This document shows, one piece after another, positions 36,401 through 39,400 of a stretch of 64,000 bases of DNA; within the stretch, counting starts at the first letter, position 1, and the number at the start of each line of letters is the position of its first letter. The stretch is from Escherichia coli O157:H7. GTDB lineage: Bacteria > Pseudomonadota > Gammaproteobacteria > Enterobacterales > Enterobacteriaceae. Made by a program: the position numbers. The stretch lies in the NCBI RefSeq assembly GCF_013167455.1, contig NZ_CP038328.1; one strand, 5' to 3'.

Positions 36401-39400
36401 CGGCTTCGTTTTCTCCTTTCGCCCGAGCTTCCTGCGGGGTAATACCGGTAATTAATACTGCTCCAGGCTGGGGTAAATAGTCATCCGCGGGCTTGCAGTA
36501 AAAGACTTCGGGTTCGCCGATGACATTGAATTCGTCATCGGTGCGAATGGCTGCGAACTGTGCAGGGCGATCTAACGCGGGGTGCGTGCCAAAGGTTTCG
36601 TAATCGTGAAAGAGGAAGGTAGGTTGCTTATCTGTGTCTGTCATTGTCTAGCATTGTCCAATGTAGTTAATTAACTGTCTGTTATAACTCGAAAAACAAC
36701 CCTTTTTTCACCTGAGTATGTCTACGAACGTCAAATATAGTTGTTTACTGTGCGCTGTTGTCCATGTGATATTGTGTACCAGATGTGTACCAAACCATTA
36801 TTTCTGAGCGTACCAAATATTATTTATGGCTATAAGCGACACAAAACTGCGTACTATTTATGGTAAACCATATTCTGGCCCACAAGAAGTGGCTGATGCC
36901 GATGGCCTCAGCGTACGAATTTCACCGAAGGGGGTCATCCAGTTCCAGTACCGCTATCGCTGGCATGGCAAGCCTAATCGACTTGGGCTTGGTCGATACC
37001 CATCCCTGTCTTTGAAGGATGCCAGACAGATCACTGCTGACTTGCGAAAGCTCTATTTCTCAGGAACGGATCCACGCACTTATTTTGAAGAGAAGGTGGA
37101 GAACTCCATGACGGTCGCCCAGTGTCTCGACTACTGGTTCGACAACTACGTCTCTACAACTCTCAGAGAAAAGACCCAAGCACTTTACCGATCAACGGTT
37201 ATGAAGCGCATGCATGACGCCTTCCCTAATCGTCCGGCATCTTCTATCACGGTTAAGCAATGGGTTGACCTGCTTACCGAAGAAGAAAAAGATAATCCAC
37301 GCCGAGCAAGGCAGGTGCTAAGTCAACTAAGATCAGCAATTAGTTGGTGCATGCGGCGTCAGTTGATAGATAGTTGCGCAATTATGAGCATCCAACCAAG
37401 GGACTTCGGCTCCCGCGCTGAGGTAGGGGATCGGGTACTGTCGTATCACGAACTGGCTAAGATCTGGCTTGCTATTGAAAGAAGCCGTGCGTCTACGTCA
37501 AATAAGCTCCTTCATCAGATGCTTATGCTGTGGGGGGCGAGGCTCTCAGAGCTTAGGCTGGCAACAAAGACAGAATTTGACCTGCTGGACAACGTATGGA
37601 CCGTACCGAAAGAGCATAGCAAGATGGGTAATGTTATCCGCCGTCCAATCTTCGATCAAATTAAGCCTTTTCTCGAAAAGGCCATGACAACGTACAATGA
37701 TGTTCTTTTCCCTGGAGAAGACATAAACAAACCGATCAGCATCGCTGCAGCTAACCGATTCGTAAATAGAATAAGGGGAGGGATGGATCTAGGTTACTGG
37801 CGAACACATGATTTCAGAAGAACGCTTGTTACACGTCTGTCCGAGATGAATGTCGAGCCTCATGTTACTGAGCGAATGCTCGGTCATGAACTTGGCGGGA
37901 TAATGTCCGTATACAATAAACACGACTGGATAGAGGCTCAGCGCAAAGCGTATGAGCTTCACGCTGATAAATTGTTCTGGCACATCAGGAGCATTTCTGA
38001 TTAACGCCACCGTTAAGAATCCACCCTTCAACAGCTTCACGAAGGTATGATTTGGGGTGGGTTCTGACTGGCTTCGGAAATCCGTGCCGTTTGGTATAGT
38101 TCCAGATTGTCTGACGTGATGAAACACCGAGCTTGTTCATCACTTCTTTCTCAGGAATCAGGCTGGTATCGGTCATCTTAATTCTCCAGGCAAAAAGAAA
38201 CCGCCATATAGCGGCTCTATCAGATATGAACAGGCCTCATCGAGTGTGAGGCGTTAGTCCTTGCGTAGCTCGCTGATTCTTCTGTAAGTCTCTGGTGCTT
38301 TGTTTCCGTGTATCTTCATTTCAGACTTCAACAGAGCAACGAGGGAATCCCATTCGTTGAGGATTCCTTTGAATGCCGGAACGCGCTTTGCAACCTTGTC
38401 GAATGAATCTCTGATTTCTGGAATCTGCTCAACAAGTGCAACGCATCGTCTGAAATCGGCTGCGTCATGTGGAGCACCGAAGCCATGACCATAGATATTC
38501 TTTTTCAGGCCACATGCGATTGAGGCAAGAGTTGCGCTACTGATGCCGACATCGCCAGTTGATTGCCATTTCAAAACCTTCATAGCCAAATCTGACATTT
38601 CTTGTCTCCATAAAACAAAACTCGCCGTAGCGAGTTCAGATAAAAGAAATCCCCGCGAGTGCGAGGATTGTTAGTTGCGCTCTGCTGCTGCCTTAGCCAT
38701 TACCATATCCACACAATTTCACCAGACATGATTCTCGCAATCACTATCATCACCAAAGTGATAATCACAACTTTAACTGGCGGCATCATTCACCATCCTG
38801 CTGCGGTGCTGCTGGATATACTTTTCTCATCCAATGCGTGGCGTCATGAATAACGAACTGATATTCATCATCAGTAAACATCGAGCCATCCCACTGTAGC
38901 CCGTCAAGAACACCTCTGGATGGAGAGAATACCCAGATATCGAAATCGTATTTCTCCGGCATTCGCTCACTACAGCTTATCCAACCATCCGGAGTTACCG
39001 GAGAGTTGCCAGCCTTGCGCATGGCAATCTCCATGATTTCAACCATATCTCCTGGTGGAATTTTACAATGCTGACCAATATGCCTCTGCTGCCTGGCATA
39101 TTCGAGGATGTGCTCCAGCTTGATACGATTAATCATGATTTATCTCCCTGAAGCATGGCTTCGCGGCAGTCGTTCCAGCCTTCAGCATAATCACTATACG
39201 CAAGAGGCCAACCGTTTCTGTATTCACGCGGCAACTTATCAGGCACTACCAGCGCTGGCGGCGCGGAGAATAGTGGTTTAGGTGATATTTCCGCACGTTT
39301 TGCGTATGCTTCAACTGTGTCAGGGTTAAACAGGATTATGTTTTCACCGCATTCTCACGCTATCGGTTCTGCTTCCAGCGATGCCAGTGCAATTTCATAA

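Follow-up and report, generated by a model that had tools for sequence, protein, structure and literature searches.

A probable stop-start-coupled gene for a hydrophobic micro-protein in the exo-xis region of an Escherichia coli O157:H7 prophage

Does a very short open reading frame (ORF), wedged between two phage genes of Escherichia coli O157:H7, encode a protein, and of what kind might this protein be? The question is raised by a stretch of 64,000 nucleotides (the window) from contig NZ_CP038328.1 of assembly GCF_013167455.1. For this stretch, an original prediction made from the sequence alone had proposed a translationally coupled, hydrophobic peptide of 29 amino acids with a single transmembrane helix, encoded on the minus strand of a phage early-left operon and missed by ORF calling. 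The ORF lies exactly where it had been placed, between 38700 and 38789, its translation is MMPPVKVVIITLVMIVIARIMSGEIVWIW, and the product is written here as (M)MPPVKVVIITLVMIVIARIMSGEIVWIW. This micro-ORF is very probably a real coding gene, the evidence for its translation being evolutionary. The reading favoured here as a whole, namely a genuine gene for a hydrophobic micro-protein of 28, possibly 29, residues that belongs to a small unnamed family of the exo-xis region, is likely to be correct.

Frame conservation and selection among diverged homologues

Taken by itself, an ORF of 29 codons is not beyond chance, as about one in four random stretches of 28 codons is expected to be open; the remaining two sense frames of the micro-ORF contain 5 and 2 stops. 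Of 5426 complete E. coli genomes, 221 (about 4%) contain the segment, O157:H7 Stx2c lysogens among them; these genomes carry the clade of the window only. The segment is also present in 10 phage records and 32 contigs of IMG/VR. All copies have an identity of 90% or more, and with a single exception of 95% or more, and because the divergence is so small, conservation among E. coli copies is uninformative. The alleles vary chiefly in two neighbouring codons (..EIVW.., ..EIGW.. or ..EVWW..) and in the start, which may read ATGATG or TAATG or, after a 1-nt deletion, begin with GTG. That the ORF had been missed by annotation holds for RefSeq, where the Prokaryotic Genome Annotation Pipeline (PGAP) omits it, and for the GenBank phage records examined; it does not hold for all protein deposits, since identical peptides called by other pipelines are available as ‘hypothetical protein’ (e.g., BBC51094.1). 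The micro-ORF might therefore be a chance ORF in a short intergenic linker, kept as lambdoid modules exchange near-identical DNA, with no peptide being made, and the expected openness of such frames, the near-identity of the E. coli copies and the omission by PGAP and by the phage records are all in favour of this explanation.

More distant relatives were found in two ways. A profile of the E. coli alleles, searched against 1.84 billion representative proteins, gave 4 matches only, all of the micro-protein family, and through two of them, DNA homologues with a nucleotide identity of about 70% were reached (L239 and L240). L239 encodes MPPVKVVIITLILIIAARFMSGEMGAIW behind GGAGGTGAAGTGATG and continues with TAATG and an 11-codon phrog_536 stub, and L240 encodes a peptide of the same type, in which a one-base difference in a G run alters the last residues. 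In addition, a degenerate DNA pattern for PPVKVVIIT (codons 2-10) was scanned over 100,044 species genomes and IMG/VR; it has a single match among the species genomes, in Pseudocitrobacter vendiensis (MPPVKVVIITLLLLGVCQLIARTGFGIW), and about 17 further matching contigs in IMG/VR. Altogether, 21 distinct nucleotide versions encoding 13 distinct peptides were obtained, and the family appears to occur in lambdoid prophages of Enterobacteriaceae, including those of Shigella and other enterobacterial prophages. The flanks of one homologue (L243) have only matches of about 75% to phages in blastn searches, and these are to E. coli and Klebsiella phages. Exact look-up of the diverged 28-residue peptides in a collection of 15 billion proteins returned none, and tblastn searches with the peptide found no matches in 50,697 phage records beyond the 10 near-identical ones, at E values up to 10, and none in 72,556 plasmids. 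Neither the E. coli peptides nor the diverged ones match a family of Pfam, NCBIfam or PHROG, except for a meaningless hit (E=0.23) to PsbN.

In 20 of the 21 versions, the frame has a length of exactly 28 codons, if the count starts at the ATG equivalent to the second ATG of the window, and ends at the same stop position; the exception is due to the one-base difference in the G run. Scoring of substitutions was limited to codons 11-28, as the search seed had fixed codons 2-10, and the window allele served as reference. For the diverged members, the proportion of synonymous differences (pS) is 0.6-1.0 and thus at or near saturation, whereas the proportion of nonsynonymous differences (pN) is 0.20-0.47, and the corresponding rate ratio dN/dS, where computable, is 0.11-0.29. 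The codon for Ser21 is TCT in one clade and AGC in another, and replacements are mostly exchanges among V, I, L, M, and F. Conserved are Lys5, Ala17-Arg18, Met20, Ser/Thr21, Gly22, Glu/Asp23, usually Gly25, Ile/Val27, and Trp28. The original prediction had made its case dependent on the frame being conserved in relatives, and it is conserved there, together with its length, its stop, a Shine-Dalgarno-like motif, and the overlap with the preceding gene, in spite of synonymous saturation. The sense frame is under purifying selection at the amino acid level, and it is this comparative evidence that lifts the 29-codon ORF above chance. As diverged homologues keep frame, length, stop, Shine-Dalgarno-like motif and start while synonymous sites are saturated and replacements conservative, a chance ORF is a very unlikely explanation.

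A low dN/dS by itself cannot tell the two strands apart, because one antisense frame shares its third positions with the sense frame. A 64-residue ORF exists on the plus strand (Table 1), and it might be argued that this is the real gene, as 19 of 20 versions have the wobble-sharing antisense frame open; all 20 have the sense frame open. However, the same nucleotide changes produce conservative replacements, with a mean BLOSUM62 score of about 0 to +1, in the sense frame and radical ones, with means of -0.5 to -2.0, in the antisense frame. Start, stop and length of the antisense frame are not conserved and differ in every context: the first start is followed by just 19 codons in L246 and 11 in L251, and the frame is broken in L260. 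In the window, the start of such a gene would fall within a terminator hairpin, and its direction would be opposite to that of the operon. Coding by the opposite strand is thus extremely improbable. The 64-residue ORF itself is a cautionary case for calls that employ dN/dS only, being open and yet failing the tests of substitution pattern and of boundaries.

Start region, probable coupling and genomic setting

The start region reads GGTGAATGATGCC, with the TGA stop of the preceding DUF551 gene sitting within ATGATG (Table 1). An ATG overlapping the stop of the 116-residue ORF, as had been claimed, is indeed present, the first ATG overlapping that stop as ATGA. The second ATG shares the same stop as TGATG, and since this is the start kept in relatives, a product of 28 residues is likelier than one of 29, although the 29-codon ORF itself exists. 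The last codons of the DUF551 gene contain the Shine-Dalgarno-like AGGATGGTGA, in which GGTGA and AGGA are situated 0 and 6 nt from the first ATG and 3 and 9 nt from the second. Relatives have AGGAGGTGAAGTGATG or GGAGGCGAAATG at this site, and in all clades the start, normally ATG and in two contigs GTG, is preceded by AGGATGGTGA, AGGAGGTGA or GGAGGCGAA.

Table 1. Features at and around the micro-ORF, in coordinates of the window
Feature	Coordinates	Strand	Remarks
Micro-ORF	38700..38789	-	29 codons from first ATG (38789-38787), 28 from second ATG (38786-38784); TAA stop 38702-38700
Shine-Dalgarno-like AGGATGGTGA	38790..38799	-	within last codons of DUF551 gene (..QQDGE)
DUF551 gene, 116 aa	38786..39136	-	Pfam PF04448, E=4.9e-10; phrog_924/phrog_24004; TGA stop 38788-38786
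phrog_536 remnant MAKAAAERN, nine codons	38671..38700	-	ATG overlaps micro-ORF TAA as TAATG
First intrinsic-terminator-like hairpin and T tract	38638..38669	-	stem 38669-38648, 9 pairs, loop of 4; starts 2 nt past remnant stop
Second intrinsic-terminator-like hairpin and T tract	38608..38637	-	stem 38637-38618, 8 pairs, loop of 4
114-aa gene	38254..38598	-	next in operon; phage 434 ORF114 / HK022 gp32 type, phrog_1229; followed by AlpA-like xis and convergent integrase
sbcB	35220..36644		adjoins prophage genes
Lambda cIII thermoregulator RNA element	43963-44021	-	upstream of micro-ORF
ORF of 64 aa	38659..38853	+	antisense to micro-ORF
Sigma-70-like CAGACA-16-TATCAT	38723-38750	+	antisense, within micro-ORF

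Stop-start overlap takes the form ATGA/TGATG in the window, TGATG in the clades with ..QQEVK, and TAATG in some E. coli alleles, and amounts to 13-19 nt in the Pseudocitrobacter clade. Both the Shine-Dalgarno-like motif and the overlap persist behind unrelated upstream genes, such as those for DUF551 fusions and for proteins ending in ..AAPQQEVK, ..APKPEVK or ..LSEGDK, and with varied downstream genes, of the phrog_536, ASCH and other types. A membrane protein of 71-75 residues is encoded upstream in the Pseudocitrobacter clade, where the type of element is different. All identifiable upstream genes of the E. coli clade end in the DUF551 C-terminus ..HWMPLPEPPEQDGE or a close variant, while the N-terminal parts are diverse. 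The last codons of the upstream gene travel with the micro-ORF, as would be expected of codons that double as its ribosome-binding site. If the next gene is intact, it begins with an ATG that overlaps the stop of the micro-ORF as TAATG or TGATG. From this architecture we infer translational coupling of the micro-ORF to the upstream gene. A programmed frameshift fusing the peptide to DUF551 was considered and rejected, because there is no slippery site, a proper Shine-Dalgarno-like sequence and an ATG are present, the clade of the window has a stop before the ATG in that frame, and the micro-ORF also follows genes other than DUF551.

Two further observations concern these contexts. The most diverged clade (MPPVKVVIITLLLLGVCQLIARTGFGIW; L242, L249, L255, L257, and L260) occupies a different kind of element, in which the micro-ORF comes after a large gene (718 residues in L249, at a guess a primase/helicase) and the gene for the membrane protein of 71-75 residues, which suggests transfer of the micro-gene between element types. 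In L248 (IMGVR_UViG_2916446609_000003), a second stop-start-coupled hydrophobic micro-ORF of 25 residues, MPNPFDFVMFVLLTWGVIDQAGWTW, follows the 28-residue gene; behind the homologue in L240 there is a stub of this second ORF (MPNPFDA).

On the downstream side, the window has a short remnant of a phrog_536 gene. It is interpreted as a deletion remnant because several related contigs have, directly after the micro-ORF, a full gene of 112 residues, MAKAAAERKAAQRARQ..., that belongs to phrog_536 (E=4e-54, labelled “transcriptional regulator”). The ancestral order was upstream gene, micro-ORF and phrog_536, each junction being an overlap. The majority of phrog_536 genes lack an intervening micro-ORF, being coupled directly to genes for ASCH-domain proteins or to others, so that the micro-ORF is an independent module. 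The deletion joint of the remnant abuts a block of two terminator-like hairpins, the first of which begins 31 nt from the stop of the micro-ORF. The block is shared with HK022, with over 3000 of the 5426 E. coli genomes, and with phage lambda, where it lies between ea8.5 and lambdap35 (about 29293-29353, 2 mismatches in 61 nt), and in the examples examined it begins 0-4 nt from the stop of whichever gene precedes; we know of no name for it. The micro-ORF is not tied to this block, as the block comes directly after other genes in lambda and HK022, and relatives have the ORF but lack the block.

The overlaps at both ends (ATGA/TGATG and TAATG) raise the possibility that translation of the micro-ORF only passes ribosomes from the upstream to the downstream gene, or keeps ribosomes on the mRNA up to the terminator, and that the peptide has no function. 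The usual direct coupling of phrog_536 to whatever precedes it would agree with such a relay, as would the nine-codon remnant in the window, on which reinitiated ribosomes would stop 2 nt before the first terminator stem. A mere relay, however, would not hold amino acid identity under synonymous saturation, nor would it retain Arg18, Gly22, Glu23, Trp28, and a fixed length of 28 codons. Moreover, most phrog_536 and ASCH genes lack the micro-ORF, and the micro-ORF is retained even where another gene or none takes the downstream position. A relay without a functional peptide is therefore quite unlikely. Interpretation as a leader peptide or attenuator was rejected as well, since in relatives genes and not a terminator come after the ORF, the region folds no better than shuffled sequences, and selection acts on amino acids.

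The 601 bases around the micro-ORF match E. coli O157:H7 chromosomes and the Shiga toxin 2 (Stx2)-converting phages 1717, 2851, and relatives at 100%, and the window holds an Stx2c prophage of the 1717/2851 type, at sbcB. Counted from sbcB, the gene order is a P4-type integrase gene (+), an AlpA-like helix-turn-helix gene (-), the 114-residue gene, the micro-ORF, and the DUF551 gene, after which exo-xis homologues follow, i.e., Ea22-like, TraR/DksA (orf73-like), DUF1382 (orf63), DUF1317 (orf60a), and YqaJ/exo. In RefSeq, the lambda exo-xis gene set is annotated in an identical prophage, in the same orientation as the micro-ORF. The early-left setting that had been predicted is borne out by this gene set and by the cIII thermoregulator upstream on the same strand, and the more precise location of the micro-ORF is the accessory exo-xis region of this leftward operon. 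Other matches above the Rfam gathering score in the prophage are to isrK, C4 antisense RNA, and STnc100 (52852-53037, 59298-59509, and 57647-57887, all on the plus strand), to sRNA-Xcc1 (53982-54065), and to three tRNA genes; this set is typical of late-region control and tRNA islands in Stx phages.

The predicted membrane peptide and its possible role

The window peptide has a grand average of hydropathy of 1.76 (1.5-1.8 across clades), and its best 19-residue Kyte-Doolittle window scores 2.28 (2.1-2.4 in all clades), the classical cut-off being 1.6. The peptide would form a short membrane helix with an interfacial tail that ends in Trp, in which Ala17, Ser21, and Gly25 come to lie on one face, a typical helix-packing surface. 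Of the predicted single transmembrane helix, the hydropathy supports one short membrane helix, which is marginal on the Hessa scale because of the conserved Arg and Glu. On balance, it is reasonably probable that the peptide is embedded in a membrane.

Size and hydrophobicity, which resemble those of the Ibs, ShoB, and Zor toxins, bring to mind a module like a type I toxin-antitoxin system, in which a hydrophobic toxin is held in check by an antisense RNA from the opposite strand, and a sigma-70-like sequence lies antisense within the ORF (Table 1). This promoter match scores 9 of 12, though, and the region contains 1 such match where 2.9 are expected in shuffled sequence. No Rfam family is found in the 38.2-39.2 kb interval, and the 211-nt region folds no better than shuffles, the ORF itself containing no significant RNA structure (z = -1.42). 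The micro-ORF, furthermore, has neither a promoter of its own nor a long structured leader and is embedded by overlaps in an operon, and the antisense strand is not conserved as a frame, while saturation of the third positions implies that no duplex is conserved. A type I arrangement is thus highly improbable. In this region, RNA structure exceeding that of shuffles was found nowhere apart from the terminators, neither strand has more promoter-like sites than expected by chance, and none lies upstream on the coding strand. As genes of the operon also overlap the ORF at both ends, a moron expressed from the repressed prophage is unlikely.

Several observations weigh against the favoured reading of a genuine micro-protein gene. 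Conservation at the N-terminus is overstated because some of the diverged members came from the pattern, which fixes PPVKVVIIT at codons 2-10. Within codons 11-28, the major near-identical E. coli alleles differ only non-synonymously, with the differences clustered at codons 24-25; the O157:H7 allele of the window has Val at the otherwise conserved Gly25 and another common E. coli allele has Trp, and the change of Gly25 to Val could reflect relaxed constraint or a functional variant. In one contig, ATT replaces the ATG start. The family is narrow, being present in the said 221 of 5426 complete E. coli genomes, in no plasmid, and in one of the 100,044 species-representative genomes. The peptide string returned no papers in a literature search, and the ribosome-profiling papers found for enterohaemorrhagic E. 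coli (EHEC) concern Sakai and EDL933; the sole Sakai phage record among the matches (VT1-Sakai) aligned only upstream of the micro-ORF. With regard to the membrane helix, the uncharged core from Lys5 to Arg18 has only 12 residues (16 in the Pseudocitrobacter clade), and sums on the Hessa scale are slightly unfavourable (+1.4 to +2.7 kcal/mol).

If the favoured reading is nevertheless correct, translation of the micro-ORF would start by termination-reinitiation coupling on the leftward early transcript. As the micro-ORF lies far down this transcript, which depends on antitermination by N, production of the peptide would be confined to the time after infection or induction of the prophage. The peptide would then insert into the inner membrane as one short helix, with Lys5 at the cytoplasmic face followed by the 12-residue V/I/L core, and with Arg18, the small-residue face (Ala17-Ser21-Gly25), Glu23, and the C-terminal Trp at the interface. 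There it may pack against, or perturb, a membrane component of the host or of the phage during early lytic development, a component of the host inner membrane being preferred. The original prediction had pointed out that small membrane peptides in phage early regions include host-killing and exclusion factors. A toxic or depolarising role is possible but unsupported, and a specific toxic or host-killing role seems rather unlikely. Exclusion in lysogens is unlikely because the ORF lies deep in the repressed early operon and no promoter of its own was detected.

Unrelated micro-ORFs in the same place were also observed. At least four sequence-unrelated peptide families occupy the slot after DUF551-type genes, and hydrophobic micro-ORFs of 24-40 residues unrelated to the present one start on the stop of DUF551-type genes in L190, L192, L196, L203, L204, and L207 (also in L228 and L140). 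An example is the M(N/T)WPEAF...RWG family of 25-28 residues, one member of which has been deposited from E. coli ATCC 35150. Such micro-ORFs were counted at 8 of 109 DUF551 junctions and at 18 of 1922 junctions of a crude control; as 6 of the 8 belong to one family, the enrichment is only suggestive. A more far-reaching reading, which we regard as unlikely, would be that a DUF551-type early protein followed stop-on-start by an unrelated membrane micro-ORF of 24-40 residues is a recurrent arrangement of temperate phages, and that the peptide is a membrane effector switched on at induction that influences Stx-phage development or the fate of the host. Such an effector would, for example, depolarise the host inner membrane or retarget a protein in it.

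Expression at induction would fit the timing of the remaining exo-xis genes, which affect host physiology and the choice between lysis and lysogeny, and would not fit exclusion in lysogens. In Stx phages, the exo-xis region has been linked to this choice and to prophage induction (PMC3824215, PMC8614690). The text of the exo-xis modelling paper (PMC8614690) contains no such peptide and neither ‘transmembrane’ nor ‘small ORF’, and its three mentions of ‘membrane’ are unrelated. Stx-converting prophages drive the virulence of EHEC, and the exo-xis gene inventory has so far been treated as a handful of named ORFs. To this region, the present analysis would add a conserved, selected and mostly unannotated micro-protein gene and thus a candidate for a phage-encoded membrane effector, and it illustrates how stop-start-coupled ORFs of less than 30 codons may escape RefSeq annotation. 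Should the peptide be toxic or alter induction, it would matter for models of Stx release; should it be inert, its recognition would still correct the annotation.

Comparison with known systems

The exo-xis genes of lambda (orf60a, orf63, orf61, orf73, ea22, and ea8.5) are situated in the same region and on the same early leftward transcript as the micro-ORF, and like it they appear to be non-essential accessory genes that shuffle as modules. Lambda has no counterpart of the micro-ORF, however, and its double hairpin block follows ea8.5 with nothing alike before it.

With type I toxins of the Ibs, ShoB, ZorO, and Ldr/Hok kind, the micro-protein has in common a size within the range of 19-50 residues, one hydrophobic segment rich in V, I, and L, and a gene that often goes unannotated; ZorO of O157:H7 also consists of 29 residues. 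It differs from them in lacking sequence similarity, a family match, a detectable antisense RNA, and a promoter of its own, and in being encoded by a coupled ORF inside a phage operon, whereas type I toxins are encoded by stand-alone, tightly repressed loci.

A purely architectural resemblance exists to the class of AcrZ, MgrB, MgtS, and CydX, small regulatory proteins of the inner membrane, which consist of fewer than 50 residues and form one short helix with a face of small residues, flanking charges, and an interfacial Trp. By analogy, the micro-protein might plausibly act through packing of its helix against a larger membrane protein. There is no homology to any of them, and the gene for the micro-protein is phage-borne, in an exo-xis region. 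A precedent for the kind of role proposed here is YdfD, a lysis protein of 63 residues with a membrane helix that is encoded in the dicB operon of the Qin prophage, late in the leftward early operon, and is toxic when expressed. The micro-protein is unrelated to YdfD in sequence.

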